From an uncultured Chloroflexia bacterium (GTDB lineage: Bacteria; Chloroflexota; Limnocylindria; Limnocylindrales; CSP1-4), in assembly GCA_963746075.1 (NCBI GenBank), contig CAVUZY010000004.1, positions 663,848 to 727,847 of the forward strand: a DNA stretch of 64,000 bases, given 5' to 3'. The notes under the pieces are model-generated. The model had not been told where the DNA came from, did no database searches, and was given only the letters and a program-made list of their open reading frames with translations. This document shows positions 36,399 through 61,164 of this stretch, piece after piece. The translations under genes and the position numbers were made by a program. Positions within the stretch are counted from its first letter, which is position 1, and each line of letters opens with the position of its first letter.

Positions 36399-37577
36399 GT
36401 GCCCACGGGTGCGGAGACCCACGTGAACGAGCCGTTCCGCGACGAGCCGCCGGTCCGCGACCTGGCCGCCTCGACCCCCGACGCGATCGACAGCGCGATC
36501 GATGCCCGCCGCACCGCCGAAGCCGTGCTCTACGAGATCCGGCGCGTGATCGTCGGCCAGGACGCGATGCTCGAGCGGGTCCTCGTGGCGCTCCTGGCCG
36601 GCGGCCACCTGCTCCTCGAGGGCGTTCCGGGTCTTGCCAAGACGTTGACGATCAAGACCCTCGCCGACGTCCTTCACGCATCGTTCCGACGGATCCAGTT
36701 CACCCCGGACCTCGTCCCGGGCGACCTCGTCGGGACCCGGATCTACCGCCCCGACCGCGGCACGTTCGACACGGAGCTCGGGCCGGTCTTCTGCAACTTC
36801 CTGCTCGCCGACGAGATCAACCGTGCCCCGGCCAAGGTCCAGAGCGCGCTGCTCGAGGTCATGCAGGAGCGCCAGGTCACGATCGGCCCGGAGAGCCACG
36901 CCGTCCCCCGGCCGTTCCTCGTCATGGCGACCCAGAACCCGATCGAGTCGGAGGGCACGTACCCGCTGCCCGAGGCCCAGGTCGACCGCTTCATGATGAA
37001 GGTCGTCGTCGGCTACCCGAGCGGCGAGGAGGAGGCGCTCGTCGTCGAGCGGTCGCTCCGGCCCGCCGCCATCGTGACCCCGATCCTGACCGCCGACGCG
37101 CTCGGCGCCCTCCAGGCGATGACCGCCGACGTCTATGTCGACCGCCCGATCGTCGACTACGCCGTCGCCCTGACGGCCGCCACGCGCCACCCGGAGCAGG
37201 TCGGACTCCCGGCGATCAAGCCGTACATCGCCTTCGGGGCGAGCCCGCGCGGCTCGATCAACCTGATCCACGCCGCCCGTGCCCTCGCCCTCGTGCGCGG
37301 CCGGCGCTACGTGATCCCGGGCGATGTCGTCGACCTCGCGCGCGACGTGCTGCGTCATCGGATCGTGCCGAGCTTCACCTCCCTCGCCGAGGAGGTCACC
37401 GCCGACATGATCCTCGACCGTCTGGTCGAGGCCGTGCCGGTGCCACGGGTCGCCCACGACGGTCTCCTTGCCCGGTCCGAAGCGGCCGAGCGGGGTGGTC
37501 CGGTCGGACGGGCTCGCCTCAATCCGTCGGCCGAGCCATTCGGTGCCGCCGCGCAGCCCGAGGAGCGCTCCGCATGA
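36399..37577 (+). CDS. MoxR-family AAA+ ATPase (Bat-like module 1)
   Basis: GQDAMLERVLVALLAGGHLLLEGVPGLAKT...LLADEINRAPAKVQSALLEVMQERQVT. Stop overlaps the next gene's start (ATGA). Confidence 0.9.
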   Translation: MPTGAETHVNEPFRDEPPVRDLAASTPDAIDSAIDARRTAEAVLYEIRRVIVGQDAMLERVLVALLAGGHLLLEGVPGLAKTLTIKTLADVLHASFRRIQFTPDLVPGDLVGTRIYRPDRGTFDTELGPVFCNFLLADEINRAPAKVQSALLEVMQERQVTIGPESHAVPRPFLVMATQNPIESEGTYPLPEAQVDRFMMKVVVGYPSGEEEALVVERSLRPAAIVTPILTADALGALQAMTADVYVDRPIVDYAVALTAATRHPEQVGLPAIKPYIAFGASPRGSINLIHAARALALVRGRRYVIPGDVVDLARDVLRHRIVPSFTSLAEEVTADMILDRLVEAVPVPRVAHDGLLARSEAAERGGPVGRARLNPSAEPFGAAAQPEERSA

Positions 37578-38514
37578 CCGGCTGGAACAACGCCATCGCA
37601 GGCGCCCAGCGGACCCCGGCTCGACCGGGGCCCGGCCCGACGCCCGAGGCGCTCCTCCGCGCCCTCGACCTGACGATCGGACGGCGGATCCGCGGCCTGC
37701 TCCCCGGGGAGTACCGGGCCCACGACCTCGGCGGCGGCACCGAGCTCGCCCAGGTCCGGCCGTACGAGCCGGGCGACGACATCCGCCGGATGGACTGGAA
37801 TGTCACGGCCCGGACCGCGGTGCCGCACGTCCGGGTCCACGTTCCGGAGCGGGCCCTCACGGCGTGGCTCCTGCTCGACGTCTCGCCATCGATGACGTTC
37901 GGGACCGCCGACCGACGCAAGGCCGACGTCGCGGACGGTGTCGCCGTCGCGATCGGCCATCTCGCAACCCAACGCGGGAACCGACTCGGGATCGTGACGT
38001 TCGGTGGCTCGCGCGATCGGCGCCTGCCGCCGGCCGCGGGCCGGGCCGGGCTGCTCGGCCTGCTCCTCGCGAGCCAGGTCGAGACGGTCGAGGAGGGCGT
38101 CGGGGCGACCTCGCCGGTTGATGCCCTTCGACTCGCCAGCGCCGCTGCGCCACGAGGCGGCCTGGTCGTCCTCGTCTCCGACTTCCGGGGGCCGCGGAAC
38201 TGGCGCCAGCCCGCTCGCCGCGTTGGCCGCCCGCCACCACGTCCTGGCCGTCGAGATCGACGATCCACGCGAGTCCGCGCTGACCGACGTCGGCGAGCTG
38301 ACCCTCGTCGACGCCGAGACCGGCCGCGAGGTCCGCGTGGACACCTCGTCGTCGCGGCTCCGCGAGCGGTTCGCCGAGGCCGCCGCTGCCGAGCGGGCGT
38401 CCGTCGCGACCGACGCTCCGACGGATCGGCGTCGACCACATCGTCCTGTCGACCGCCGGCGACTGGCTGCGGACGCTCGCCGGCGAGCTCCACCTCCGGG
38501 GGCTGCGGTCATGA
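37574..38514 (+). CDS. DUF58 protein (Bat-like module 1); two frameshifts (~38200 and ~38440)
   Basis: MDWNVTARTAVPHVRVHVPERALTAWLLLDVSPSM...LVVLVSDFRGP. It continues in a second frame as LAALAARHHVLAVEIDDPRESALTDVGELTLVDAETGREVRV and ends in a third frame as GVDHIVLSTAGDWLRTLAGELHLRGLRS* overlapping the next ATG. Confidence 0.75.
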
Positions 38515-39581
38515 CCTTCACCGATCCGCTCCTGCTCCTCGGGCTGCTCATCGTGCCCGCCGCGCTCATCGCCTACGGCCTCATCCAGCGCCGGCGCAGC
38601 CGCTACGCGGTCCGGTTCACGAACGTCGACCTGCTCGGCAACCTCGTGCCCCGGACGCCGGCCTGGCGGCGCCACGTGCCGCCGGCCCTGTACCTCGTCG
38701 CCATGGCCGCCCTCGTCCTCGCCCTGGCCCGGCCGTCCATGGCGATCCAGGTCCCGCGCGAGGAGGCCACGATCATCCTGACGATGGACGTCTCGGGGTC
38801 GATGATGGCCACCGACGTCTCGCCGACCCGGCTCGCCGCCGCCCAGCGGGCCGCCAACGACTTCGTCGACCAGCTGCCGGCCGGCGTCAAGGTCGGGCTC
38901 GTGGCCTTCTCGACGGCGCCGCGTGTCGTCGTCGCCGCGACCACCGACCGGGCCGCCCTGCACGAGGGCATCGCCAACCTCCGGGCCCGCGGCGGGACGG
39001 CGCTCGGCGACGCGATCATCACGTCGCTCGAGGCAGCCGGGCTCGATCCGGCCGGGACGCCGGGCGATCCGGCAGCCACACCGCCGGGCGACCCGTCCGC
39101 CTCGGACGATCCGCCGGCGGAGCCCAGCGCGGGGCCGTCCGCCTCGGCCTCGGGCGAGCCGGGAGCCGCGGAGGCGCCGGTCATCGCGACCGTGCTGCTG
39201 TCCGATGGCGCCAATTCGACCGGCGAGATGGAGCCGCTGCCGGCCGCCGAGCAGGCCGCCGTCCTCGGCGTGCCGATCTACACGATCGCGCTCGGGACGG
39301 CGGACGGCGTCGTCACCGTCCCCGACGACGAAGGAGAGCTGCATACCCTCAACGTTCCTCCCGACACGGAGACCCTGGCCGCGATCGCCGAGACGACCGG
39401 GGGACGCGCCTTCGAGGCGCCGACCGCGACCGATCTCGCCCAGATCTACGAGAGCCTCGGCTCGCGGATCGGCTACACGACCGAGGAGCGCGAGGTCACG
39501 CAGTGGTTCGCCGCTGCCGGCCTGCTCCTCGTGGTGACCGGCGCCGGGCTCGCCGCCCACTGGTTCAACCGCTTCCCATGA
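38511..39581 (+). CDS. von Willebrand factor A (VWA) domain membrane protein, BatA-like (module 1)
   Basis: N-terminal TM, MIDAS motif ILTMDVSGSMMATDVSPTRL, C-terminal TM AAAGLLLVVTGAGLAAHW. Confidence 0.8.
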   Translation: MTFTDPLLLLGLLIVPAALIAYGLIQRRRSRYAVRFTNVDLLGNLVPRTPAWRRHVPPALYLVAMAALVLALARPSMAIQVPREEATIILTMDVSGSMMATDVSPTRLAAAQRAANDFVDQLPAGVKVGLVAFSTAPRVVVAATTDRAALHEGIANLRARGGTALGDAIITSLEAAGLDPAGTPGDPAATPPGDPSASDDPPAEPSAGPSASASGEPGAAEAPVIATVLLSDGANSTGEMEPLPAAEQAAVLGVPIYTIALGTADGVVTVPDDEGELHTLNVPPDTETLAAIAETTGGRAFEAPTATDLAQIYESLGSRIGYTTEEREVTQWFAAAGLLLVVTGAGLAAHWFNRFP

Positions 39582-44352: not shown

Positions 44353-45417
44353 CTAGGGGAGCGGCCGCCAGAGACGCCCGAGCAGCAGCCCGAACGCAGC
44401 CAGCAGGCCGCCGATCGCGACGAACCCGGCGCTGACCTCGACGGCCTCGCTCCGCAGGATCAGGCTCGTCGGCAGCTCGGCGAAGACCCGCTCGAGCTCC
44501 ACGGCGCTCGTCGCCGGGTAGTACGCACCGTCGGTGACCTCGGCGACCTCGCGCAGCGTCGGCTCGTCGATGCCGCGCGGGAACCGGCCGCCTCCGCCGC
44601 CGCCGAACCCGCCCCCGAACCCGCCGCCGGGCTCGTTGCCGATGAACTGGCGGCGGCAGACCGGATCGATCTGCCCCCCGTCGACCGACCCGAACCCGAT
44701 CGTGTAGACGCGCAGCCCGCGGTCGGCCGCCTGGCGGGCCGCTTCGACCGGCTCCGGCCCGCTGTTGCTGGCGCCATCGGTGAGCACGACGATGATGCTC
44801 GGCGAGTACTCGCCCTCGGCGACCGGCGGTGGCGCAGCCCCGGCCCGGCCCGGGACGACGCTCCTGGCGACCGTCGGGTCGACCTCGGCGATCGCGTCGA
44901 TCGCCGACAGGATCCCGCTGCCGATGGCCGTCCGGCGGGCCGTCGTGAGGCTCCGGATCGCGTCGATGAGCAGCGTCTCGTCGGAGGTGGGAGCCTGGAC
45001 GATCGCCCCGAAGCCGCTGAACGCCACGATCCCGATCTGGGTCCGCGACTTCTGACTGGTGACGAACGCGATCGCGGCCGATTCGGCCGCCTCGAGCCGC
45101 GTCGGCTCGATGTCGGTCGAGCACATGCTGCCCGACACGTCCATCGTCAGGATGATCGTGGTCTGGTTGGCCGGCACGCTCAGGACGACCGCGGGTCGGG
45201 CGACCGCAAGCACGATGGCCCCGGCCGCCGCGGCGAGGAGGGCGAACGGCAGGTGCCGCCGGAGCCGTCCACCGCCGGGCTGGGCAGCGCGGATGAGGGC
45301 GAGGCTCGAGTACCGCGCTGCCTGCGGCCGATGGCGACCGAGGCTCCAGACGTACAGGGCGACCAGCGCCGGGACGATCCCGAGGAGGAGGAGCAGGCCA
45401 AGCCACTGGAAGGTCAT
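44353..45417 (-). CDS. VWA-domain membrane protein (Bat-like module 2, distal copy)
   Basis: N-terminal TM, MIDAS ILTMDVSGSMCSTDIEPTRL, Gly-rich GGGFGGGFGGGGGG segment, C-terminal TM. Confidence 0.8.
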   Translation of the reverse strand: MTFQWLGLLLLLGIVPALVALYVWSLGRHRPQAARYSSLALIRAAQPGGGRLRRHLPFALLAAAAGAIVLAVARPAVVLSVPANQTTIILTMDVSGSMCSTDIEPTRLEAAESAAIAFVTSQKSRTQIGIVAFSGFGAIVQAPTSDETLLIDAIRSLTTARRTAIGSGILSAIDAIAEVDPTVARSVVPGRAGAAPPPVAEGEYSPSIIVVLTDGASNSGPEPVEAARQAADRGLRVYTIGFGSVDGGQIDPVCRRQFIGNEPGGGFGGGFGGGGGGRFPRGIDEPTLREVAEVTDGAYYPATSAVELERVFAELPTSLILRSEAVEVSAGFVAIGGLLAAFGLLLGRLWRPLP

Positions 45418-45445
45418 GGCGTCCTCCGCCTGTTGCGGTCCAGGC

Positions 45446-46501
45446 TCATGGCAGCCGGCCGGACCGGGCCAGCGACCCGGCCGCTCCGACGATGAGGAGC
45501 ACCAGCCCGAGCGCGGCGACGAGCGCGGTCAGCTCGAGGCCCTCGTCGCGGCCGACGAGGTTGCGGGCGAGCCCGTCGTAGACCGTGGCGGGATCCAGCT
45601 CGGCGGCGGGCTGGTACGTCCCCGCGGTCAGGTCGGCGACTTCGCGCAGGGCGTCCTCCTCGAGCCGGGTCTGGACCCGGAAGCCGTCCAGCTCGAGGGT
45701 CGTCCCGGCCGCCGTGCCGACCCCGACGGTGACGATCCGGATCCCGCGGTCCGCCGCGGCCTGGGCGGCGGCCAGCGGATCGGGACGCTCGTTGTTCTCG
45801 CCGTCGCTGAACAGGACGATCGCCGCGGCCTCGTGACTGCCCGGGGCCACCGGCACCGCCGCCGCGCTCGGTTCGGCCGAGCGGTTGCTGTAGTAGCTGG
45901 CGGGCGTGTCGGTCTCGGCTCGTTCGATCGCCCCGATCGTGGCCAGGATGCCCTGGCCGACGGACGTCCCGCGGCTCGGCGCCAGCCGGTCGATCGCCTG
46001 CATGACCCGGGCCGTCTCGTTCGTTGGCGTCTGGACGGCGAGGCCGCCGTCGCTGAACGCCACCACGCCGATGACGACGCCGTCGGGGCGACGCTCGACG
46101 AGGGCCTTGGCGGCGGTCTTGGCGGCCTCCATCCGGGTCGGTGCGACGTCGTCGGCGGCCATGCTGCCCGAGACGTCGAACGTCAGGACGAGCGTGCCCT
46201 CGATCCGGGGCACGGAGACGGTCGCCTGCGGCCGGGCCAGGGCCACCGCGAACACGACGAAGGCGGCAACGATGGCGGCGGCCGCCAACCGGTCCGCCAG
46301 CCGCCGCCCGGCCCGGCCGGCTCCGACCGCCCCGACCGCCCCGCCCGAGCCGCCCGAGCCGCCGGCTCCGTTGGCGTCGCGCCCGAGCCCGCCGAGACCC
46401 GCCAGCCGGGCTCGTCGTCGCCGGTCGATCCGGCGCGCCGCCAACAGCCCGAGCGGGACCAGCCCGATCGCGAGCAGGGCCGGCGGCCAGAGGAACGTCA
46501 T
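45446..46501 (-). CDS. VWA-domain membrane protein (Bat-like module 2, proximal copy)
   Basis: MIDAS VLTFDVSGSMAADDVAPTRM. N- and C-terminal TM helices. Stop/start overlap with the DUF58 gene (ATGA). Confidence 0.8.
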   Translation of the reverse strand: MTFLWPPALLAIGLVPLGLLAARRIDRRRRARLAGLGGLGRDANGAGGSGGSGGAVGAVGAGRAGRRLADRLAAAAIVAAFVVFAVALARPQATVSVPRIEGTLVLTFDVSGSMAADDVAPTRMEAAKTAAKALVERRPDGVVIGVVAFSDGGLAVQTPTNETARVMQAIDRLAPSRGTSVGQGILATIGAIERAETDTPASYYSNRSAEPSAAAVPVAPGSHEAAAIVLFSDGENNERPDPLAAAQAAADRGIRIVTVGVGTAAGTTLELDGFRVQTRLEEDALREVADLTAGTYQPAAELDPATVYDGLARNLVGRDEGLELTALVAALGLVLLIVGAAGSLARSGRLP

Positions 46502-47403
46502 GCCGGAACCCGCCGGCGAAGCTTGTGGCCGGCCGCCATCCGGACGATCGCCCGGACGAGGTCGTCCTCGGTGGACAGCGTTGCCGCCTCGACCCGGGCC
46601 CGGCGCAGCGCCGCCGTCACCTCCGCCTCGCGGGCGTCGGCGGCCGCCCGGAAGCGCTTGCGGAACCCGGCGTCGGCGGTGTCCACGTAGAGCTGCTCGC
46701 CGGTCTCCGCGTCCTGCATCACGAGCGGGCCGACGTCCGGCAGCTCGATCTCGCGGGGGTCGACGAGCCGGACGGCCAGCAGCTCATGGCGCCGGTTCAG
46801 GAGCTCGAGCGGGCGGTCCCAGCCCGGGACACCGATGAAGTCCGAGACGAGGATCAGCAGCGACCGGCGCCGGATCCGGCGATGGGCAGCCTGGAGCAGC
46901 GGCCCCAGGTCCGTCACCGGCGCGACGGCGAGACGCGGCTGGCGCAGGAGGTCCTCGATCAGGCGCAGGACGTGGACCCGGCCCGAACCGGCCGGCAGGA
47001 CGTGGTCCTCGTTGCCGGCCCACGCGATCGCCCCGACCCGATTGCCGCGCCGGGTCAGGAGCCGGGCCATCGTCGCCACGAAGTCGATCAGGACCGTCCG
47101 CTTCTCGCGCTCCGTCTCGACCGTTCCGAAGTCGACGGACGGGCTGAGGTCGAGCAGGAACCAGGCCGTGATCTCGCGATCCTCGTGGTACTCGCGAACC
47201 CATGGCGCGTCCATCCGGGCGGTCACGTTCCAGTCGATCGCGCGAACGTCGTCGCCGAACTCGTACTCGCGGAGGGCGGCGAAGTCGAGCCCGGTGCCGT
47301 GGAACAGGCTCCGGTCGTCGCCCTGGAGCAGGCCGTCCAGGCGCCGGACGACCTGCCAGTCGAGTCGCTGGAGGATGCGCTCAGGCGCCGACGCGAACGC
47401 CAT
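46498..47403 (-). CDS. DUF58 protein (module 2)
   Basis: IDWNVTARMDAPWVREYHEDREITAWFLLDLSPS...LLILVSDFIG. Intact. Confidence 0.85.
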   Translation of the reverse strand: MAFASAPERILQRLDWQVVRRLDGLLQGDDRSLFHGTGLDFAALREYEFGDDVRAIDWNVTARMDAPWVREYHEDREITAWFLLDLSPSVDFGTVETEREKRTVLIDFVATMARLLTRRGNRVGAIAWAGNEDHVLPAGSGRVHVLRLIEDLLRQPRLAVAPVTDLGPLLQAAHRRIRRRSLLILVSDFIGVPGWDRPLELLNRRHELLAVRLVDPREIELPDVGPLVMQDAETGEQLYVDTADAGFRKRFRAAADAREAEVTAALRRARVEAATLSTEDDLVRAIVRMAAGHKLRRRVPA

Positions 47404-48415
47404 CTCGCTCCTGGAGGGGGACGACCGGCATCGGGACGCGGCCCAGGATCGACGCCAGGATCCGGTCGGCCGAGATGTCGTCGGAGAGGGCCTCGAACGA
47501 CAGGACGAGGCGGTGGCGCATCACGTCCATCGCCATGTCCCGGACGTCCTGTGGCAGCGCGTACTCGCGGCCTCGGACGTGGGCCAGGGCGCGGGCGGTG
47601 AGGATCAGGTTGATCGAGGCTCGCGGGCTCGCGCCGTACGTCAGGTAGCGGCGAAGCTCGGGCATCCCGTGGGCCTCCGGCTCGCGGGTCGCCGTCGTGA
47701 GCCGGACGGCGTAATCGATGAGCGCCGGGTCGACATACACCGCGTCCACGACGGTCTGGAGCCGAACCAGCTCCTTCGTCGTCAGGACCTCGTTGATCGT
47801 GTCGCGCCGGCCGGTCATCCGCTCCACGACCGCGAACTCCTCCGTGGGCGACGGATACCCGACGAGGACCTTGAGCATGAACCGGTCGACCTGGGCCTCG
47901 GGCAGGGCGTAGGTGCCCTCGGTCTCGATCGGGTTCTGTGTCGCGAGCACCAGGAACGGGTTGGGCACCGGATGCGATTCGTGGGCGATCGTGACCTGCC
48001 GCTCCTGCATGACCTCGAGGAGGGCGCTCTGGACCTTGGCCGGGGCGCGGTTGATCTCGTCCGCCAGGAGCAGGTTCGTGAAGACGGGCCCGAACGACGT
48101 GGTGAACTCGGCCGTCTTCTGGTTGTAGATCCGGGTCCCGATCAGGTCGGCCGGGACGAGGTCCGGGGTGAACTGGATCCGCTTGAAGTCACCGCCGATG
48201 GCCTCGGCCAGCGACTTGATCGCCATCGTCTTGGCGAGGCCCGGCACGCCCTCGACGAGGAGATGGCCGCGAGCCAGGAGGGCGACCGCCATCCGCTCGA
48301 GCAGATGGTCCTGGCCGACGATGACCTTCTTGACCTCGAACAGCAGGCGCTCCATCGGCGCGGCCGGGCGGGTGGTCTGGGCGGGGTCCAACGGGGTCAC
48401 CTCCTGCAAGGTCAA
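47381..48415 (-). CDS. MoxR-family AAA+ ATPase (module 2)
   Basis: GQDHLLERMAVALLARGHLLVEGVPGLAKT...LLADEINRAPAKVQSALLEVMQERQVT. The start overlaps the upstream protease gene's stop (ATGA). Confidence 0.9.
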   Translation of the reverse strand: MTLQEVTPLDPAQTTRPAAPMERLLFEVKKVIVGQDHLLERMAVALLARGHLLVEGVPGLAKTMAIKSLAEAIGGDFKRIQFTPDLVPADLIGTRIYNQKTAEFTTSFGPVFTNLLLADEINRAPAKVQSALLEVMQERQVTIAHESHPVPNPFLVLATQNPIETEGTYALPEAQVDRFMLKVLVGYPSPTEEFAVVERMTGRRDTINEVLTTKELVRLQTVVDAVYVDPALIDYAVRLTTATREPEAHGMPELRRYLTYGASPRASINLILTARALAHVRGREYALPQDVRDMAMDVMRHRLVLSFEALSDDISADRILASILGRVPMPVVPLQERDGVRVGA

Positions 48416-49308
48416 TACGGCGGCAGGCCGGCGGCGCCGCCGGCGACGTCGATCGGCACGGCCAGGCCGATCCCGATGAAGACGTCCTGCTTGGTCGGGT
48501 TCACGAGCGCGGTCACGATCCCGACGACCCGGCCGTTGCGATCGAGGAGCGGTCCGCCGGAGTTGCCCGGGTTGATGGCCGCATCGACCTGGATCAGGCC
48601 GCTGATCGTCTGGTCCGTGCCGGGCTGCTCGTACGAGCGGTCGAGGGCGGAGACGACGCCCGTGCTCAGCGAGCCGGCGAGGCCGAAGGGATTCCCGACG
48701 ACGTACGCCTCGCTCCCGATCCGCATCGCGGCCGGGTTGCCGAGCGTCGCCGGCAGGAGGCCTGCGGGCGGCTCGTCCGGCTCGAGCACGGCGATGTCCG
48801 ACTCGGGCGTGCTCGACGCGATCGTCGCACTCGAGCTGGAGCCGTTCGCGTAGGTGATCTTGATCGTCGTCGCGCCGGCGACGACGTGGAGCGCGGTCAG
48901 CACGAGGCCGGCGTCGTTGACGACGACCCCGCTCCCCAGCCCGTGGCCATCGTCGGCGCCGTCGTTCGCGCGGTCGGTCTCGATGATGACGAGCGACGGC
49001 CGGACGACGGCATAGACGAGCTCGGATCGTGGCGCGGCGGGGGTCTGCGAGGCGAGGGCGCTGGCGACCGCGATGTTGACGTCGCGCAGGGTGATCGGCG
49101 GCCGGCCCGGGTTGACGATGCCGAAGGCGGCGATCGCGAGGAAGGCGGCGGCGATCCCGGCCACGAACGGCGTGGCGCGTCGAACGCCGGCGGCGGCGCG
49201 CCTCCTCGCCCGCGGTGGCGGTGCCGTCTCCGCGACCGCAGGACGGCGCGGGACGGGAGCCTCCGTTCGAGGCCCGAGGCGGCGTTGCTCGTCCGGCTCG
49301 TCGAACAT
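48412..49308 (-). CDS. membrane-anchored S1/trypsin-like (HtrA/DegP-type) serine protease, first gene of module 2
   Basis: TM FVAGIAAAFLAIAAFGIV. Catalytic triad context TALHVVAG (His), ESDIAVL (Asp), GNSGGPLLD (Ser). No PDZ domain is evident. Start placed at MFDEPDEQ (49308) to avoid overlap with the divergent gene. Confidence 0.75.
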   Translation of the reverse strand: MFDEPDEQRRLGPRTEAPVPRRPAVAETAPPPRARRRAAAGVRRATPFVAGIAAAFLAIAAFGIVNPGRPPITLRDVNIAVASALASQTPAAPRSELVYAVVRPSLVIIETDRANDGADDGHGLGSGVVVNDAGLVLTALHVVAGATTIKITYANGSSSSATIASSTPESDIAVLEPDEPPAGLLPATLGNPAAMRIGSEAYVVGNPFGLAGSLSTGVVSALDRSYEQPGTDQTISGLIQVDAAINPGNSGGPLLDRNGRVVGIVTALVNPTKQDVFIGIGLAVPIDVAGGAAGLPPY

Positions 49309-53390: not shown

Positions 53391-53466
53391 TGGGGTGGCC
53401 TACGGGGGTCGAACCCGTAACCGCTGGAGCCACAATCCAGTGCTCTACCATTGAGCTAAGGCCACC
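53391..53466 (-). tRNA. tRNA-His (anticodon GTG) with genomically encoded G-1 and 3' CCA
   Basis: On the minus strand: G GTGGCCT TA GCTCAATGGTAGAGC A CTGGA TTGTGGC TCCAG CGGTT ACGGG TTCGACC CCCGT AGGCCAC C CCA. The cloverleaf pairs correctly, the anticodon loop is UUGUGGC, and G-1 pairs with discriminator C73. Confidence 0.85.
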
Positions 53467-53616
53467 ATGCACGCACGCCGGCGGCGAGGCCGGCGTGGGC
53501 CACGGGAGTCTACCGGATTCGGCGTTCGCGTCGACATCCCGAGGAGCGTCTGTACAGCGCGCGCGTCACCTGCCATGATCCGCGTCCGCCGGCCCAAGGT
53601 GGGGAGGACCGCGATG

Positions 53617-55104
53617 ACTGATCGCCGCCGCGTCACCCGGCTCGTCGTGCTCGTCGTCGCCGGTCTGGCCGTCGCCGGCACGAGCGCTCCGACGCCCCCG
53701 CCCGGCCCGACCCAGCCGCTCAACAGCGGCGGAACCCTCCACATGACGGCCGATCAGCCGGTCGCGGTCCAGCCGCTGGTCTTCGTCGTCGAGCACGGCC
53801 AGCTCGCGTCGATCGCCATCACGCCCACGATCTCCGGCGCTCCCGATCAGGGATCGATCCTGACGTCGATCGTCCGGACGGATCAGGTCGGATCCGGATC
53901 CGACCCCGCGATCAGCAGCCCGTCGGGGCCGCCCACCCGGACCTGGTCCGCCGGCTGCCAATCGAACCCATGCGTCGTTCGCTACGCCCTCGTCGTCACG
54001 TGGTTCGACGCGCCTCCGCGCGGCGAGGTGGACGTGACGTGGGCCGTCGACGCAACGGCGACGTATGCGGGCTCGGCGCCGGCCGGCGCCACGCCCGGTC
54101 GGGTGACGCTGGCCGCTCCGGCGGCCGAACCCGGGGCGCGGGCGACGCTGAGCCACGAGACGAGTGGCAAGCCCGTCCACCTGACGGAGGGCGACCGCTT
54201 CCGCTCGTGGACGATCACCCTCACCCGAGACAGCTCGGCCGAGCCGGCGACGAGCTCCGCGCCGACCACCCTCGCTCGACTCGACCTCACCGCGGCCCAG
54301 GTCGCCGGTCCGGCTGTCGTCCTGGGCGAGGACGGCCAGCCCGAGGATCGCCGAGCCCGGAACCGGCCGGACCCGCCGGTCCAGCTCCGCCTCGATACCT
54401 CCGACAGGCGGCAGACCACGAGCTGGGCACCCGACCGACCGATCGAGTTCGATCCGTTCGTGTCGTGTCGGGTGGACCTGCCGTGCGAGACGACGCTGAC
54501 CATCCAGGTCGTCTGGGCCGACGGCCGGCCGGACACGGCGTTCGACGCCGGCTGGACGCTCGACCTCGCGTCGATCCACGCCTCCGAGCCACCTCCGGCG
54601 ATCGAGGCCACGGTCGAGGCGGTTCCGCCGATCCATCTCGCGTCGGCATCGGCCGGCGGCACCTTCGACGAGCCGGGTTCGTTCAACCAGCCGGCGGTGC
54701 ACTTCGTGGTGAACGCGCCACCCTTCCGGGACCAGCCGTCGGACGCGGGCCGGACCGTGCCGGCTCGGGCGTTGGCGACGGTCATGGTCACCTCTGTCGG
54801 CGCCGTACCGCTGCCGGCCGACGCCGAGATCTCGATCTTCGCCGGTGCCTACGGCGTCATCGTGCATCCCGGCGAATCGGCGACGTTCGCCTTCGAGCCG
54901 CGGGGGCTGTGCCGGGCGGACGTCCTGGGCACCTGTTCCGCCGAGGGAGCGCTCGGCGCCGCCATCGTCAAGCCCAATCGCAACCAGACCAAGATCGACG
55001 GCATGGTCGCCCGGATCGAGTGGACGATCGAGGCCGCCGTCGGGACGGTCGACAAGGGCACGGCGGTCTTCCTCGTGGAGCCACAGCCGACGAGGCGCCC
55101 ATGA
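53617..55104 (+). CDS. hypothetical secreted protein
   Basis: Start MTDRRRVTRLVVLVVAGLAVAGTSAPT (signal/anchor), then a ~470-aa domain with no recognised motif. Stop overlaps the next ATG (ATGA). Confidence 0.5.
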   Translation, partial: TDRRRVTRLVVLVVAGLAVAGTSAPTPPPGPTQPLNSGGTLHMTADQPVAVQPLVFVVEHGQLASIAITPTISGAPDQGSILTSIVRTDQVGSGSDPAISSPSGPPTRTWSAGCQSNPCVVRYALVVTWFDAPPRGEVDVTWAVDATATYAGSAPAGATPGRVTLAAPAAEPGARATLSHETSGKPVHLTEGDRFRSWTITLTRDSSAEPATSSAPTTLARLDLTAAQVAGPAVVLGEDGQPEDRRARNRPDPPVQLRLDTSDRRQTTSWAPDRPIEFDPFVSCRVDLPCETTLTIQVVWADGRPDTAFDAGWTLDLASIHASEPPPAIEATVEAVPPIHLASASAGGTFDEPGSFNQPAVHFVVNAPPFRDQPSDAGRTVPARALATVMVTSVGAVPLPADAEISIFAGAYGVIVHPGESATFAFEPRGLCRADVLGTCSAEGALGAAIVKPNRNQTKIDGMVARIEWTIEAAVGTVDKGTAVFLVEPQPTRRP

Positions 55105-56679
55105 CCGACGGCCTGTCGGCGGCGGGCGGGACCAACCGGCCGGTGACCCTCGATGGCGTCGAGCCGCGAGGGCGCGTGATCGCCGGCGACGGCCTGCTCC
55201 ACCCGGTCGTGATCGGCGGCGATCCTCGTCCTCCTGGTCAACGACCAGGTCCTCAAGCGGGCGTGGCCGGGGGTCGTGACGGGCAAGCTGTCGGACATCG
55301 CCGGGCTCGTCTTCGCACCGCTCCTCCTCGTCGCCGCCGCGGAGCTGCTGACGAGCGTTGCCGGTCGCTGGGACGCCCCGAGCCGGCGCTGGCTGACCGC
55401 GGCGGTTGCGGCGATCGGGCTCGGGTTCGCCGCCGTGAAGCTCATCCCCGAGGCGGAGGCGCTCTGGGAGGCGGGCCTCGGCGCCGTTCAATGGCCGGTC
55501 TCGGCCCTCGGCGACTTGGCCGCAGGACGCGGGCTGCCCCCGATCCGCCCGATCGCGTCGACGCCGGACGCGACGGACCTCGTCGCGATCCCGGCGGTCT
55601 GGCTGGCGCATGCGATCGGCCTCCGGCGGGTGGCTCGCGGCTCCGCCGAGCAGGCGGCGACCGTCGACCGGGCGGTGACACGAACGGGGAACTGGTGGTA
55701 CGAGCTTGCGGTCGCGACCCTCGCGGTGGCGATGCTCGCGGGCGCCACGATCGACGGCTGGGCCCACACCCACGACCCGACGTCGCTCGAGACGATCCTC
55801 ACGCCGTGGCACGCCGTCGTCTACCTGTCGTTCGCCCTGGTCGCGTTCCTCGTCTTCGCGCCGCTGCTCGCGGCGCGCCTGGAGGGCCGCGACACGGTCC
55901 GGGCGATCCCGCCCGGGTTCGGCTGGTCGGTCGCCGGCGTCGTCGCCTTCGCCGTCGTCGGGCTGCTCGATCTCGGGTGGCACCTCGTGTTCGGGCTCGA
56001 GGCCGACACCGAGGCCCTGCTCAGCCCGACCCATCTGGGACTCGGCGTGACCTCGGCCATGATCGCGAGCGGTCCGCTCCGCGCGGCCTGGATCCGCCGC
56101 GACGATCGGCCCGGCGAGGCAATCTGGCCGTCCTTCCTGCCCGCCGTCCTCGCCGTCGTGGCGATCGTCGGCGTTGCCGCCTTCGCCCTCCACCCGGTCA
56201 ACCTGTTTGTCGATGCGTGGCCGCGCTGGCCGTACGGCCGGTTCGACGCGACGTGGTACGCCCCGAACCTCGGCATCGCGGGAGCGATCATCCCGACCCT
56301 GCTCGTCGTCGTGCCGCTCCTCGAGCTGCTCCGGCGCTGGCCGGTCCTGCCGGCCGGCACCGCGACGATCCTCGTCGGTGCGACGATGGCCGGCCTCACG
56401 TTCCTCCACGACGGCTGGGTGCTGGTCGGCGCCCCGATCCTCGGCGGCCTCCTGATCGACCTCGTCCTGCTCGCGGTGCCCCGCGGACCCCTTCGGCCGT
56501 GGCTCGTTGCGGGCGTCGGACCAGCGCTCCTGTTTGTCGCCTACTTCGTCGTCGTCGCTCGGACCGGGCCCGTCACGTGGACCGCCCACCTGATCGGCGG
56601 AACCGTCGCGATCGCCGCGTTGACCGGTCTCGCGCTGGCGCTCCTGGCGCGACAGCCACGCACGATCCAGTCCGCCTGA
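55101..56679 (+). CDS. polytopic integral membrane protein, unknown function; frameshift near 55215
   Basis: At least 12 hydrophobic helices (ORF 55276..56679). In-frame upstream continuation AILVLLVNDQVLKRAWPGVVTGKLSDIAG joins the ATG at 55101 only after a 1-nt shift. Confidence 0.5.
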
Positions 56680-56724
56680 TTGACCGCGCCGCCAACCCGG
56701 CCTACCATCCGCCCACAACTGAAG

Positions 56725-56875
56725 ACGCTTATCAAGAGTGGTGGAGGGACCGGCCCTGTGAAGCCCGACAACCGACCGGCGGCGACGCCGGCACGGTGCC
56801 AAATCCGGGCAGGTCCTCCTGCGAGATAAGGTCCTTCAGACGGCCCTTCCTCACAGGAAGGGTCGCTTGGTTTCT
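56725..56875 (+). ncRNA. SAM-I (S-box) riboswitch with a terminator-type expression platform upstream of the thrC-like gene
   Basis: gcUUAUCAAGAGuGGuGGAGGGAccGGCCCuguGAAGCCCgaCAACCgaccggcg...GGUGCCAAAUCCgggCAGgu...GAGAUAAG matches the S-box consensus blocks. Downstream hairpin cccuucc-ucaca-ggaaggg followed by ucgcuugguuucu. Confidence 0.8.
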
Positions 56876-56905
56876 CGGGCTCGATGACGGCGGCGGTCCT
56901 CCACG

Positions 56906-58228
56906 ATGGAGACGACCACGATGACGCTCGAGACCCCGATCCGGCCGGCCGAGCCGGCCGACACGCCGCCGACGACCCCATCCCATGTCCGCGGGCTGCG
57001 CTGTCGCGCGTGCGGCCGGCCCGACGAGCTCGGCCCCAGCTTCGTCTGCGTCGCCTGTTTCGGGCCGCTCGAGGTCGTCTACGACCACGACGTGGCTCGG
57101 GCACGCTTGACCAAGGAGTCCATCGCCGCGCGTGCGCCGGGGATCTGGCGCTACCTGGAGCTGCTGCCGGTCGCCGCCGCGCCGGAGCGCGGCCTCGCGG
57201 TCGGCTCGACCGCCCTCGTCCGGGCCGATCGACTCGGCCGCGACCTGGACCTCGGCACCGGCACGACCCTCCGCCTGAAGGACGACACCCGCAATCCCAC
57301 CCTCTCGTTCAAGGACCGGGTCGTGGCCGTCGCCACCGCCCGAGCCGTCGAGTTCGGCTTCGACACCCTCGCCTGCGCCTCGACCGGCAACCTGGCCGGC
57401 GCGACCGCGGCGGCGGCCGCCGCGACCGGCCTCCGGGCGTTCGTGTTCGTCCCGGCCGACCTCGAGCCGGCCAAGGTCGAGCACGCCCTGAGCTACGGCG
57501 CGACGGTCGTCCGGGTCGACGGCACGTACGACGACATCAACCGCCTCAGCCTCGAGATCGCCGATGAGGAGGGCTGGGCTTTCGTCAACGTCAACCTCCG
57601 GCCGTTCTACGCCGAGGGCAGCAAGACGATCGCGTTCGAGATCGCCGAGCAGCTCGACTGGCGCCTGCCGGATGTCCTGGTGGGGCCGATCGCATCCGGC
57701 TCGATGTTCACGAAGATCGCCAAGGGCTTCGACGAGCTGGCGGACATCGGCCTGGTCGAGCGCAAGGACGTCCGGTTCGTCGGTGGCCAGCCGGAGGGGT
57801 GCGCGCCCGTCGCGACCGCGTTCGCCGAGGGCGTCGACGAGATCCGGCCGGTCCGGACGCCCGACACGATCGTCCGGTCGCTCGCGATCGGCTCGCCGGC
57901 CGACGGCGGCTACGCGCTGGAGCTGGCGCGCCGGACCGGCGGCTCGATCGAGTCGATCCCGGACGCTGCGACGGCGTCGGCCATCCGGAGGACCGCCGCG
58001 AACGAGGGGATCTTCGTCGAGACGGCCGGCGGTGTGACCGTGGCCGCGGTGGAGGCAGCCCGCGCTCGTGGCGTGATCCACGACGGCGACGAGGTCGTGG
58101 CGATCCTCTCCGGCAACGGGGTCAAGACGCCGGACGCGCGCCGGTTCGGGCTCGATGGCGAGGCTGAAGGGTTCGCCGATCCGATCGCCGCGACGTACGC
58201 GGCGTTTTCGGAGCGCCATTCCGTCTGA
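56906..58228 (+). CDS. threonine synthase-family PLP enzyme with an N-terminal Cys4 zinc ribbon (ThrC-like; possibly a MetM-type methionine-biosynthesis enzyme given the SAM riboswitch)
   Basis: CRACGRPDELGPSFVCVACFG ribbon. PLP-Lys motif TLSFKDRVVAVATARA. Fold-type II PLP enzyme. 440 aa, intact. Confidence 0.8.
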   Translation: METTTMTLETPIRPAEPADTPPTTPSHVRGLRCRACGRPDELGPSFVCVACFGPLEVVYDHDVARARLTKESIAARAPGIWRYLELLPVAAAPERGLAVGSTALVRADRLGRDLDLGTGTTLRLKDDTRNPTLSFKDRVVAVATARAVEFGFDTLACASTGNLAGATAAAAAATGLRAFVFVPADLEPAKVEHALSYGATVVRVDGTYDDINRLSLEIADEEGWAFVNVNLRPFYAEGSKTIAFEIAEQLDWRLPDVLVGPIASGSMFTKIAKGFDELADIGLVERKDVRFVGGQPEGCAPVATAFAEGVDEIRPVRTPDTIVRSLAIGSPADGGYALELARRTGGSIESIPDAATASAIRRTAANEGIFVETAGGVTVAAVEAARARGVIHDGDEVVAILSGNGVKTPDARRFGLDGEAEGFADPIAATYAAFSERHSV

Positions 58229-58521
58229 GGCTAGACGACACCCAATCGCAACCGTCCCACGGGTTGCATCATCCACTCCGACGATGCAAGGTATGCACAT
58301 GCACCGCATCTTCTTGACCGACGAGGCGAAGAAGAAGCTCTGGCGGCCCTGCCGGGAGGCACGGGCCCTGGGGCTCTGACGGCGCGCAAGCGAACACCGA
58401 CAGGAGTCTCCGGGCACGGAGGCTCCAGGGGCCGCGGCACCACGAGGTGACCGCGGCGTTCTGATTCCTGGCCTCCCTCGACCGCCCGGCGGCTCCTCGA
58501 CAGCGACGAGGAGACACGCGG

Positions 58522-59274
58522 ATGACCACCACGATCGTTCTTGGTCGGGGCCCGCTCGGCCGGGCGGTGGCCGAGGCGCTCGGCGACCGCGGCGAAGCGG
58601 TCGAGGTCGTTGGCCGGCCCGCCGACGGCCGGCACGCGCCTGCCACGTTCCTCGGCACCGACGTCGTCGTCGACGCCTCGCGGGCCGAGGCCGTCGCCGG
58701 CAACGTCGAGGCGGCGCTCGACGCCGGATGCCGCGCCTTGGTCATCGCGACGACCGGTTGGCAGACCGACCTTGACCGCGTCGGGGCAGCGCTGCGGCGG
58801 GCGGGCGCGGCTGCGGTCGTCGCGCCGAACCTGGCCCTCGGCGCGGCGCTCTTCCTGCGCCTGGTCGACGAGGCCGCCCGACTGGCCGGGGCGATCGGCG
58901 GCTTCGAGCCGTCCGTCCTCGAGTGGCATCGCCGGTCCAAGGCGGATCGGCCGTCGGGGACCGCCCGCGAGATCGTCCGTCGCCTTGCGGCCGCCGACCA
59001 CCGGATCGACAGCGACGAGGTCGCGGTGCTCCGGTCCGGCTCGATGCCCGGGATGCACGTCGTCGGCTTCGACGGCACCAGCGAGACGATCGAGCTCCGG
59101 CTGACCGCCCGCGACCGGTCGGGCTACGCGACGGGGGCGCTTGCCGCGATCGACTGGCTGCGGGCGATGCCCCGTACTCCGGGGATCCACGCGTTCGACG
59201 AGGTCGTCGACGAGCGGATCGCCGCCGCTCGCGGCGGATCGCGAGAGCTCGAACCGGTCGGCGCCACCGCCTGA
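58522..59274 (+). CDS. dapB: 4-hydroxy-tetrahydrodipicolinate reductase
   Basis: EWHRRSKADRPSGTAREI (the E-x-H-H-x-x-K-x-D-x-PSGTA signature) and an N-terminal Rossmann fold. Confidence 0.8.
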   Translation: MTTTIVLGRGPLGRAVAEALGDRGEAVEVVGRPADGRHAPATFLGTDVVVDASRAEAVAGNVEAALDAGCRALVIATTGWQTDLDRVGAALRRAGAAAVVAPNLALGAALFLRLVDEAARLAGAIGGFEPSVLEWHRRSKADRPSGTAREIVRRLAAADHRIDSDEVAVLRSGSMPGMHVVGFDGTSETIELRLTARDRSGYATGALAAIDWLRAMPRTPGIHAFDEVVDERIAAARGGSRELEPVGATA

Positions 59275-59318
59275 CCGAACCCACCAACGATTTCGCCACG
59301 TTCGACTGGAGAATCCCA

Positions 59319-60307
59319 TGACCCCGCTCTTTCGCGACAACACCACTGCAGCCGCCACCCACCCACCCTTGAGAGGTGCGCTGACCGCCTTGGTCACGCC
59401 CTTTGCCGCCGACAACTCGGTCGACGAGGATGCCCTCCGCCGTCTCGTCCGCTGGCAGGTCCTCGCCGGCATCGACGGCATCGTCCCCGTCGGCACCACC
59501 GGCGAGGCCCCGACGCTGACGCCGGCCGAGCGCGATCGGGTGATCGCGATCACGGTCGAGACCGTCGCCGAGCGGGCATCGCGCGGACGGGTGCCGGTCG
59601 TCGCCGGCACCGGCACGAACGACACGGCGGCGACGATCGCCGCCACCCGCCGGGCCGCGGAGCTCGGTGCGGACGCCGCCCTCGTCGTCGCCCCGTACTA
59701 CAACCGGCCCGACGGCCGGATGCTCGACGCCCATTTCCGGGCCGTCGCCGACGACGGCGACCTGCCGATCGTGGTCTACAACGTCCCGTCGCGGACCGGC
59801 ACCAACGTCCCGCTGGACGTGTTCCTGCGGCTCGCCGAGCACCCGCGGGTCATCGGGATCAAGGAGGCGAGCGGCAACCTCGAACAGATCGCCCGGATCT
59901 GTCGCGATCGGCCGCGTGGCGTCGCGGTCCTGGCCGGCGACGACGCCTGGACGCTGCCGATCCTGGCCATGGGCGGCGACGGCGTCGTCTCGGTCGCGAG
60001 CAATGAGATCCCGGGCGAGCTCGTCGCGCTGTGCGACGCGGCGCTGGCCGGCGACTGGGACGGCGCACGCCGGATCCACGAGCGATGGCTGCCGCTGTTC
60101 TTCGCCAACTTCGCCGGCGGGCCGAATCCCGTGCCGGTGAAGGCGGCGCTCGAGCTGATGGGCCTGCTCGAGGCGGACGTCGTCCGACAGCCCCTCCTGG
60201 CGCTCGCGCCGGAAGCCCGGATCGACCTCGCCGCGACCCTCCGCGGTCTCGGCCTCGTCGAGGCGGCCGGTGGACGGATGCGGACCCTGGTGGAGGTGCC
60301 GGCATGA
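59319..60307 (+). CDS. dapA: 4-hydroxy-tetrahydrodipicolinate synthase
   Basis: ALVTPF...GIVPVGTTGE...VVYNVPSRTG...IGIKEASGN (Schiff-base Lys context). Stop overlaps the dapD start (ATGA). Confidence 0.85.
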
Positions 60308-61164
60308 GAGGGCTCGTGGCCGATCGCCGTCCGCCGCCCGCGCCGCCCGCGCCGGCCGACCTCGCGGACCTCGCCGACCTGGCGGACCTCGCGCCGGCCG
60401 ACCTGTCGACAGCCGACCTGCTGGCGACGCTCACCGCGGGCCGGCTCCGTGCCGCCGAGCCCGATTCGACCGCGCCCGATGGCTGGCGCGTTCGTCCGGA
60501 CGTGAAGGAGGCGATCGTCGCCTGCTTCGCGGACCGGACGATGACGTCGTGGCAGGTCGGGCCGCTGGCGTTCCACGATCGGGCTGCGCTGCCGCCGATC
60601 GACCCGGGCGCGGATCGCCGGATCGTGCCCGGTGGCACGGCGATCCGGGCCGGCGCGTGCCTCGCCCCGGGCGTGATCGTGATGCCGCCGTCGTACGTCA
60701 ACGTCGGCGCCTGGATCGGCGCCGGCACGATGGTCGACTCGCATGTCCTGGTCGGGTCGTGCGCCCAGATCGGGGAGCGCGTCCATCTCGCCGCCGGGGT
60801 CACGATCGGCGGCGTCCTCGAGCCGGCCGGCGCGCGGCCGGTGATCGTCGAGGACGACGCGTTCGTCGGCGCCGGGAGCCGCCTGCTCGAGGGCGTGCTC
60901 GTCGGGGCCGGCGCGGTCATCGGGGCGGGCGTGGTGCTGACCGGGTCCTCGCGTCTCTACGACCTGGTCGACGAGCGGGAGCTCGTCGGGACGGCGGAGC
61001 GACCGCTGGTCGTGCCGCCCGGCGCGGTGGTCGTGCCCGGCAGCCGCCCAGCGAGCGGCGCGTGGGCCGAGGCGCGCGGTCTCGCGATCACGACGGCGAT
61101 GATCATCAAGCGGCGCGATCCGGGGACGGATGCGCGGGTCGCGTTGGAAGCCGCGCTGCGCTGA
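60304..61164 (+). CDS. dapD: 2,3,4,5-tetrahydropyridine-2,6-dicarboxylate N-succinyltransferase (actinobacterial type)
   Basis: Left-handed β-helix hexapeptide repeats SYVNVGAWIGAGTMVDSHVLVGSCAQIGERVHLAAGVTIGGVLEP. Collinear with mycobacterial DapD as I recall it. Forms a dapB-dapA-dapD cluster. Confidence 0.75.
   Translation: MRGLVADRRPPPAPPAPADLADLADLADLAPADLSTADLLATLTAGRLRAAEPDSTAPDGWRVRPDVKEAIVACFADRTMTSWQVGPLAFHDRAALPPIDPGADRRIVPGGTAIRAGACLAPGVIVMPPSYVNVGAWIGAGTMVDSHVLVGSCAQIGERVHLAAGVTIGGVLEPAGARPVIVEDDAFVGAGSRLLEGVLVGAGAVIGAGVVLTGSSRLYDLVDERELVGTAERPLVVPPGAVVVPGSRPASGAWAEARGLAITTAMIIKRRDPGTDARVALEAALR

Follow-up and report, generated by a model that had tools for sequence, protein, structure and literature searches.

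A SAM-I riboswitch in front of a probable MetM-family gene linked to the dap genes in Limnocylindrales (Chloroflexota)

The thiocarboxylate pathway of methionine biosynthesis in Streptomyces albulus (Hasebe et al. 2024, Appl Environ Microbiol 90:e01247-24, as presented in PMC12172450 and bioRxiv 10.1101/2024.10.14.618325) leads from O-phosphohomoserine to homocysteine with the help of MetM, which resembles threonine synthase (ThrC), the small carrier protein MetO, Mec and MoeZ; according to these accounts, the source of sulfur is the thiocarboxylated C-terminus of MetO. A riboswitch for S-adenosylmethionine (SAM) upstream of metM has already been described in S. albulus (PMC12172450). Here we describe a ThrC-like gene directly behind a SAM-I riboswitch in a 64,000-nucleotide stretch of DNA (hereafter, the window) from an uncultured Chloroflexia bacterium of the order Limnocylindrales (contig CAVUZY010000004.1). 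A first-pass annotation of the window, made from the letters alone, had suggested a MetM-type enzyme; it named the right system and the wrong source, which is Hasebe et al. 2024 rather than Bastard et al. 2017. The finding is incremental as a discovery, because both the pathway and its riboswitch were published in 2024, and the system is known; what is new here is best read as a MetM member from Chloroflexota, in an unusual orphan arrangement and with a lineage-specific link to the dap genes.

The locus resembles the S. albulus system in two respects: its product is likewise a ThrC-like enzyme, dependent on pyridoxal 5'-phosphate (PLP), encoded directly behind a SAM riboswitch, and this protein belongs to a clade with homologs whose genes precede a gene for a ThiS/MoaD-type carrier ending in GG. 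It differs in that no metO, mec or moeZ is in view and the gene is linked to dapB-dapA-dapD, and in its origin from Chloroflexota rather than Actinomycetota, with about 52-55% identity to the actinobacterial members. A parallel exists in Mycobacterium tuberculosis, where CysM and CysO (with Mec) make cysteine from O-phosphoserine and the CysO thiocarboxylate: the logic is the same, in that an enzyme of the fold-type II PLP class acts on a hydroxy-amino acid in phosphorylated form and receives its sulfur from a thiocarboxylated protein of the ubiquitin-like type, but CysM belongs to the CysK/CysM-type subfamily, uses another substrate, yields another product and is not known to involve a riboswitch. 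Class II threonine synthases (PDB structures: 2zsj, 1uim, 6cgq and 2d1f) share with the window protein the fold (template modeling, or TM, score 0.90-0.92), the SFKDR motif, many invariant residues and presumably the substrate, O-phosphohomoserine. They are 33-37% identical to the window protein, which in contrast to them carries an extra N-terminal Cys4 ribbon and is under SAM control, and they differ from it at group-specific positions, 24 in number, including T88, S155, N157, R160, Q164 and the GNAG loop (Thermus thermophilus numbering). In plants, O-phosphohomoserine likewise feeds both threonine and methionine formation, and SAM controls how it is divided (PDB structure: 2c2b), but plant SAM is an allosteric effector of the protein and increases threonine synthesis, whereas in the window SAM would act at the level of mRNA, with a predicted decrease in the methionine branch.

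The window gene is probably a SAM-repressed gene of the methionine pathway, and its product a MetM ortholog, that is, a homocysteine synthase working from O-phosphohomoserine; substrate, product and sulfur donor of the enzyme are all predicted. The protein would take O-phospho-L-homoserine, the substrate of threonine synthase, and replace the phosphate with sulfur to give homocysteine. If so, the methionine and threonine metabolism predicted for Limnocylindria, a lineage abundant in soil and freshwater, would change, and a likely gap in pathway reconstructions would be filled.

The first line of evidence is the leader. The whole window was scanned against Rfam (4227 families), and three matches above the gathering scores were found. 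Among them is RF00162, the SAM-I family, directly upstream of the gene, with 62.9 bits against the gathering score of 44.4 (E = 3.1e-12). The alignment spans all 108 positions of the model (1-108); the cmscan alignment shows pairing of P1, P2 and P4 and, with some mismatches, of the base of P3. Thus, the S-box leader claimed in the first-pass annotation, which had proposed an Infernal search as a check, scores above the curated threshold in that very search. Of 30 hand-drawn aptamer pairs, 29 are standard pairs in the window, and eight homologous leaders have 22-29 such pairs; the TTGAC of the promoter-like site is invariant in all six aligned leaders from related loci. We regard the riboswitch as genuine, on the strength of its sequence and predicted pairing, with SAM as the predicted ligand.

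A profile made of the window protein and 19 diverse representatives retrieved 80 loci from species-representative genomes, coding for proteins 49-75% identical; together with L001, a 1.2-Mb contig (ENA ERZ25039485 contig_2394) encoding a 94%-identical protein, these make 81 loci, and four more (L082-L084 from Limnocylindrales, L082 lying on the 2.1-Mb contig ERZ25039492 contig_3474, and L085 from Nonomuraea) were added after the first scan, for 85 in all. In 67 of the 81 loci there is an open reading frame (ORF) of about 91 codons ending in ...PA[VI]AGG, nearly always just downstream of the ThrC-like gene. Close homologs of its product contain the ThiS-family domain PF02597 and bear the names sulfur-carrier protein or MoaD/ThiS; this ORF with its terminal GG is metO. 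Rfam detects SAM-I upstream of the gene in eight of nine homologous loci tested, and a covariance model built from the homologous aptamers of those loci was used to scan the set of 81. The riboswitch lies directly upstream of the gene in 37 of the 81 loci (41 of 85 with L082-L085 included), distributed among Chloroflexota, Actinomycetota, Verrucomicrobiota, Acidobacteriota and Dormibacterota; in the scan of the 81 loci it was seen upstream of the gene in no locus from cyanobacteria, Nitrospirota or Aquificaceae. This distribution agrees with the report that S. albulus metM has a SAM riboswitch and the Microcystis homolog lacks one (PMC12172450). Two actinobacterial loci, L076 and L085, have the full riboswitch-metM-metO arrangement. 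The survey thus finds the unit of SAM-I riboswitch and metM in at least five phyla, and the separation of metM from metO in some of its members raises the question of the sulfur donor.

The second line of evidence is the placement of the protein. It is 51-55% identical to metO-linked proteins, those from actinobacteria and cyanobacteria lying at 52-55%, whereas its identity to four solved bacterial ThrC is 33-37%. Published values are similar: the Microcystis homolog, which lacks a riboswitch and adjoins a metO-like gene, has 51.6% identity to MetM (PMC12172450), and ThrC of Bacillus subtilis shares 33% identity with MetM (bioRxiv 10.64898/2026.09.15.751699). We defined signature positions as those at which the four ThrC structures all have one residue and at least 90% of 67 metO-linked proteins share a different one. 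There are 24 such positions, and the window protein has the metO-linked residue at 23 of them, with a conservative R for K at the remaining one (selected positions are given in Table 1). In particular, T88, S155, R160 and N188, which we take to bind the substrate phosphate and to assist threonine formation in Thermus ThrC, are invariant in the four solved enzymes and replaced by L, N, Y and S in the window protein, which fits a different reaction on the same substrate. In a neighbor-joining tree rooted on two solved ThrC, the window protein, L001 and L002 are sister to L003 and L005, both of which have riboswitch and metO; L004 (with the riboswitch alone) and L019 (neither riboswitch nor metO) branch next outside this group, and the whole MetM-like clade sits on a long branch apart from solved ThrC. 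The phylogeny proposed in the first-pass annotation thus places the protein inside the metO-linked clade, with that clade's signature residues, as the annotation had supposed, and not among canonical ThrC, the outcome that it had named as contrary to its reading. Nonomuraea gerenzanensis, represented by an 11.85-Mb record, has riboswitch-metM-metO (L085) at 11.81 Mb, and at 2.50 Mb lies another gene, a canonical thrC whose product shares 65% identity with ThrC of M. tuberculosis; MetM-type and ThrC-type genes therefore coexist in one genome.

The same comparisons bear on another explanation, that the gene encodes a genuine zinc-ribbon threonine synthase whose repression by SAM tunes the split of O-phosphohomoserine between threonine and methionine. 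The TIGR00260 (thrC) model matches the protein with 253.8 bits, above the cut-off of 167.1, although this model probably does not separate MetM from ThrC, and the best-scoring model, PRK08197, reaches 276.3 bits, below its cut-off of 303. Every name in the databases is "threonine synthase", but MetM is often misannotated in this way, according to the authors of GapMind (10.1101/2024.10.14.618325). The predicted structure has the ThrC fold, the neighbors dapB, dapA and a dapD-like gene belong to the aspartate family, no second thrC was found in the window or in five related Limnocylindrales loci, and a cyanobacterial homolog has weak threonine synthase activity (PMC12172450). Against these stand the lower identity to solved ThrC than to the metO-linked proteins, the residues at the four presumed phosphate-binding sites, and the physiology: a SAM-dependent OFF switch would lower threonine synthesis when methionine is plentiful, the opposite of the plant arrangement (PDB structure: 2c2b). 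On balance, a true threonine synthase is very unlikely, and we return to the MetM ortholog as the preferred reading.

Several properties of the protein itself are worth noting. The ORF has a strong codon-usage signal of coding, and its product contains a PALP domain (E = 1e-67 in Pfam). A second ATG at 56921 would give 435 amino acids; it is preceded by GGAG at 56908-56911, 9 nt upstream, and MT[LT]ET is conserved at the equivalent position in L001 and L002, so this is probably the true start. In the family alignment, A1, cysteines C33 and C48 are invariant and C36 and C51 at least 90% conserved. They fall in a β-ribbon that AlphaFold models with confidence, the strands at residues 28-33 and 54-59 having predicted local distance difference test (pLDDT) scores of about 95, in line with the zinc ribbon and the ThrC family membership assigned in the first-pass annotation. 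Solved ThrC chains lack the motif; their alignment to the query starts only at its residue ~76-82. K136 corresponds to the lysine of SFKDR in the solved threonine synthases, which is residue 61 of the T. thermophilus enzyme when counted from the alignment. The AlphaFold model as a whole has a mean pLDDT of 90.2 and a predicted TM score of 0.87, the first 24 residues being disordered. Its best PDB matches are class II threonine synthases (target-normalized TM 0.90-0.92, 31-34% identity), and no solved MetM is among the matches listed; a sequence search of PDB likewise puts solved threonine synthases on top (E ~1e-48). Close homologs form more than 120 clusters of full-length proteins, 81-94% identical, in soil and freshwater metagenomes; where names are given, the organisms are Candidatus Limnocylindrales or Chloroflexota, and the protein is always called "threonine synthase".

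Between the aptamer and the gene lies a terminator-like hairpin (56841-56865), followed by a U-rich tail CTTGGTTTCT that extends to 56875; this is the terminator that the first-pass annotation had reported, and here a scan locates it and close relatives conserve it. In the leader region, two terminator-like sites were found against 0.3 expected from shuffled sequences, and the CCCTTCC...GGAAGGG hairpin of the expression platform, with its CCCUUCC at 56845-56851, is kept in L001, L002 and L004. The hairpin is present in every predicted full-length fold of the leader, and a search of the full-length minimum free energy folds for a classical P1-based antiterminator revealed none. Folds of shorter transcripts, cut off ahead of the terminator's 3' strand, have the 5' strand GGCCCUUCCUC (56843-56853) paired with GGAGGGACCGGCC (56744-56756) of the aptamer, which disrupts P1 and P2; the 3' strand of the terminator, GGAAGGG, hence mimics the conserved aptamer core. 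We consider this pairing of GGAGGGACCGGCC with the 5' strand a candidate antiterminator. Under such a mechanism, transcription from the promoter at about 56680-56708 would yield a leader that folds into the SAM-I aptamer. With SAM plentiful, the ligand would hold the core in a locked aptamer and leave the 5' strand of the terminator free, so that the hairpin would form and transcription would stop before the ORF; with SAM scarce, the segment GGAGGGA(CCGGCC) would pair with the 5' strand of the terminator and allow read-through. Both the OFF logic and the antiterminator pairing are what we infer from predicted folds.

Several observations weigh against the MetM reading. In Pfam and MetO-profile scans there is no metO, JAMM-domain (mec) or ThiF-domain (moeZ) gene in the window, nor within ~10 kb in L001, L082, L083 and L084 or in the shorter flanks of L002. 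Thermodynamic folding of the full-length leader predicts the terminator in all states, and the antiterminator therefore comes from the partial-transcript fold only. The link to the characterized S. albulus MetM (GenBank BHXC01000007) runs through the gene order of L076 (Streptosporangium) and L085 (Nonomuraea) and through published identities. Finally, the one study of a cyanobacterial homolog reports side activities as threonine synthase and as deaminase, while a role as MetM in vivo was not clearly seen (PMC12172450).

The partner genes were sought in several ways. A MetO profile built from 24 examples has no match in the window, L001, L002, L004 or L019, even at E <= 10, and none at E <= 1 in L082, L083 and L084; metO is absent within 57 kb upstream and 6 kb downstream of the window gene. 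Scanning practically every predicted gene in the window with Pfam gave no ThiS, JAMM, ThiF, thrB, hom, metX, metY or second thrC. The lack of an adjacent metO, pointed out in the first-pass annotation, thus holds both by the MetO profile and by Pfam. A search with MetO of L003 was uninformative: among the 120 matches listed, all are at least 82% identical except one longer protein of 148 amino acids (68%), and none bears a Limnocylindrales name. The simplest reading is that metO is encoded elsewhere in the genome. In this Limnocylindrales genome, metM would then be separated from metO, with the sulfur donor encoded elsewhere, or the donor would be something else.

The orphan state is not confined to the window. 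A riboswitch without metO is seen in 10 of the 37 riboswitch-bearing loci of the genome scan and, in addition, in the window and in L082-L084, roughly a quarter of the total. At least five lineages are represented: Limnocylindrales with L004, Anaerolineae/Ardenticatenales (L007, L072 and L031), Verrucomicrobiia (L034), Dormibacterota (L066) and Acidimicrobiales (L047). The neighbors of the orphan genes point to the aspartate pathway or to sulfur activation; in L066, there is an aspartokinase gene and then a gene for a GHMP (homoserine-kinase-like) kinase, and in L007, an aspartokinase gene follows a ThiF-family gene.

Two of these loci, from metagenome-assembled genomes (MAGs) of Anaerolineae, have riboswitch and metM without metO, followed by the ThiF-family (MoeZ-like) gene (L007, 9718-11151, and L072, 5899-6960); the L007 protein has an N-terminal extension of 146 unassigned residues. 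They could represent a carrier-less or fused variant of the sulfur-activation module. In another locus, L019 (7875-9242, Chloroflexia MAG CAWIPU010000001.1), a 58%-identical homolog has dapB-dapA as neighbors, together with the conserved leader of dapB described below. It has neither SAM riboswitch nor metO and keeps most of the MetM-type signature residues; a search of Rfam for another riboswitch class upstream of it gave nothing credible.

These orphans suggest an alternative in which the window enzyme is MetM-like and does not use MetO, accepting sulfide or sulfur from another carrier of CysO, ThiS or MoaD type, or performing some other SAM-regulated gamma-replacement on O-phosphohomoserine. 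The failure to find a metO-like ORF at relaxed thresholds in the window, L001, L002, L004 and L082-L084 is in keeping with it, as are the recurrence of the orphan state with a retained riboswitch in several lineages and three substitutions, P103A, T402S and C215S, that occur only in the window subclade at residues conserved elsewhere. On the other hand, the 24 signature positions of metO-linked proteins are kept in the orphans, 23 of them with the identical residue in the window protein. Deviations at conserved sites number 14 in the window protein and 11 in the metO-linked sisters L003 and L005, which suggests a lineage effect rather than a consequence of metO loss. Moreover, in sulfur-carrier systems the gene of the carrier is commonly encoded in trans. 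We consider a MetO-independent window enzyme improbable, and it is similarly doubtful, if anything a little more so, that the riboswitch-bearing orphans as a group form a MetO-independent branch of MetM that makes homocysteine from O-phosphohomoserine with free sulfide or an unrelated carrier. If true, bacteria would have in this branch a third type of route by direct sulfhydrylation, encoded alongside the diaminopimelate (DAP)/lysine genes of the same aspartate-derived network. Relaxed constraint or neofunctionalization in the orphan clade was also considered and found unsupported, as similar deviations are present in the metO-linked sisters.

That the gene is a decaying, non-functional remnant of a former metM-metO operon might be suggested by the missing metO and by the length of the downstream spacer, 293 nt, close to the size of a metO gene (273 nt). 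Yet the reading frame is unbroken and its coding signal strong, the more than 120 homologs are full-length at 81-94% identity, the catalytic lysine and the family-invariant residues are kept, and the riboswitch is conserved. A decayed metO in the spacer itself was rejected, since no similarity to metO exists in any frame and the spacer holds a conserved leader of dapB instead. Decay is thus extremely unlikely, and a functional MetM ortholog is again the preferred interpretation.

Downstream of the window gene, the 293-nt spacer is followed by dapB (58522-59274), dapA and a hexapeptide-repeat (dapD-like) gene, and L001 has the same order of leader, gene, dapB, dapA and hexapeptide-repeat gene. 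In the Limnocylindrales examined, the riboswitch-metM unit (56680-61164 with its dap neighbors in the window) always adjoins dapB-dapA-dapD-like genes, being upstream of them in the window, L001 and L084. In L082 and L083, it is downstream (dapB-dapA-dapD-leader-gene); L082, L083 and L084 all have the SAM-I riboswitch. The linkage between metM and dap appears to be a lineage-specific association of two aspartate-derived pathways that has survived rearrangement.

The first-pass annotation had described the spacer as about 290 bp of non-coding DNA before dapB. The length and the gene are right, and the spacer is not featureless: it contains a conserved leader with a short ORF. In order, this leader holds a promoter-like TTGCA-N17-TAnGGT site and an ORF with ATG at 58299 and TGA at 58377-58379 that encodes M-H-R-I-F-L-T-D-E-A-K-K-K-L-W-R-P-C-R-E-A-R-A-L-G-L; after it come two hairpins and then a strong terminator-like hairpin, GGGGCCGCGGCACC...GGUGACCGCGGC, with a U-rich tail. 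The leader goes with dapB even where metM is not upstream of it (L082 and L083) and in the distant L019. An exact-pattern scan of metagenomes gave at least 120 matches, and 95 unique full-length copies were analyzed. A dapB-like gene follows at a distance of about 180 nt in 84 of the 87 copies with enough downstream sequence, and all 95 copies have an in-frame leader ORF of 17-30 codons. Three consecutive AAG lysine codons occupy a fixed place in 79 of the 95 (xKKKLWRPCREARALGL*), the rest having K-x-K or x-K-K, and the N-terminal residues vary among copies. The leader has no match in Rfam, and a literature search for a lysine-codon leader at dapB returned nothing relevant.

A leader ORF with lysine codons and a terminator before genes of the lysine pathway looks like ribosome-mediated attenuation, and we consider the element a candidate attenuator and the more novel item of this work than the MetM finding. 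Simple attenuation of the trp type is unsupported: the terminator persists with a ribosome footprint at the lysine codons in 92 of 95 sequences and with one at the stop codon in 85 of 95, and footprint folding of the 95 sequences revealed no antiterminator.

Table 1. Coordinates of the features discussed in the text; window positions unless a locus is given, with residue numbers of the window protein in the last six lines
Feature	Position	Strand	Basis or comment
Promoter-like site TTGACC-17 nt-TACCAT	56680..56708	+	consensus scan, sigma-70-like; 18 nt upstream of aptamer; putative function
SAM-I (S-box) riboswitch aptamer	56726..56832	+	RF00162 full length; homologous aptamers before orthologous genes
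Predicted intrinsic terminator, 11-bp GC-rich hairpin CGGCCCUUCC-UCA-CAGGAAGGGUCG then CUUGGUUUCU	56841..56875	+	terminator scan
Probable MetM-family (ThrC-like, fold-type II PLP) gene, 440 aa from ATG 56906	56906..58228	+	PALP domain, clade placement, signature residues
N-terminal Cys4 zinc-ribbon motif C33-x2-C36 ... C48-x2-C51	57002..57058	+	family alignment and AlphaFold; predicted metal binding
Codon of PLP-binding lysine K136, motif NPTLSFKDRV	57311..57313	+	invariant in A1
Conserved dapB leader, no Rfam match	58262..58475	+	between thrC-like gene and dapB
Copies of dapB leader	L001:11326-11600; L084:5672-5946; L082:6960-7234; L083:6910-7184; L019:9775-10049; ~90 metagenome loci (L086-L201)		
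Counterpart of T. thermophilus ThrC T88	L163		alignment
Counterpart of T. thermophilus ThrC S155	N230		alignment
Counterpart of T. thermophilus ThrC N157	R232		alignment
Counterpart of T. thermophilus ThrC R160	Y235		alignment
Counterpart of T. thermophilus ThrC Q164	S239		alignment
Counterpart of T. thermophilus ThrC G187-N188-A189-G190	A263-S264-G265-S266		alignment

Elsewhere in the window, the malK-III RNA motif (RF03009, 29627-29720 on the minus strand, 78 bits against a gathering score of 50) lies directly upstream of a gene for a MalK-type ABC ATPase (28511-29629, minus strand). Two clusters combine genes for MoxR-type AAA ATPases and VWA/BatA-domain proteins, at 36399-39581 (plus strand) and 44353-48409 (minus strand); the second also includes a DUF58 gene and has a gene for a trypsin-like protease beside it (48412-49164). 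A tRNA-His (GTG) gene is found at 53391-53465 on the minus strand. The large overlapping ORFs at about 53.5-56.9 kb are spurious and due to the G+C content of 72%; the genes in that region that are probably real are 53575-55104 and 55276-56679, both without a Pfam match.

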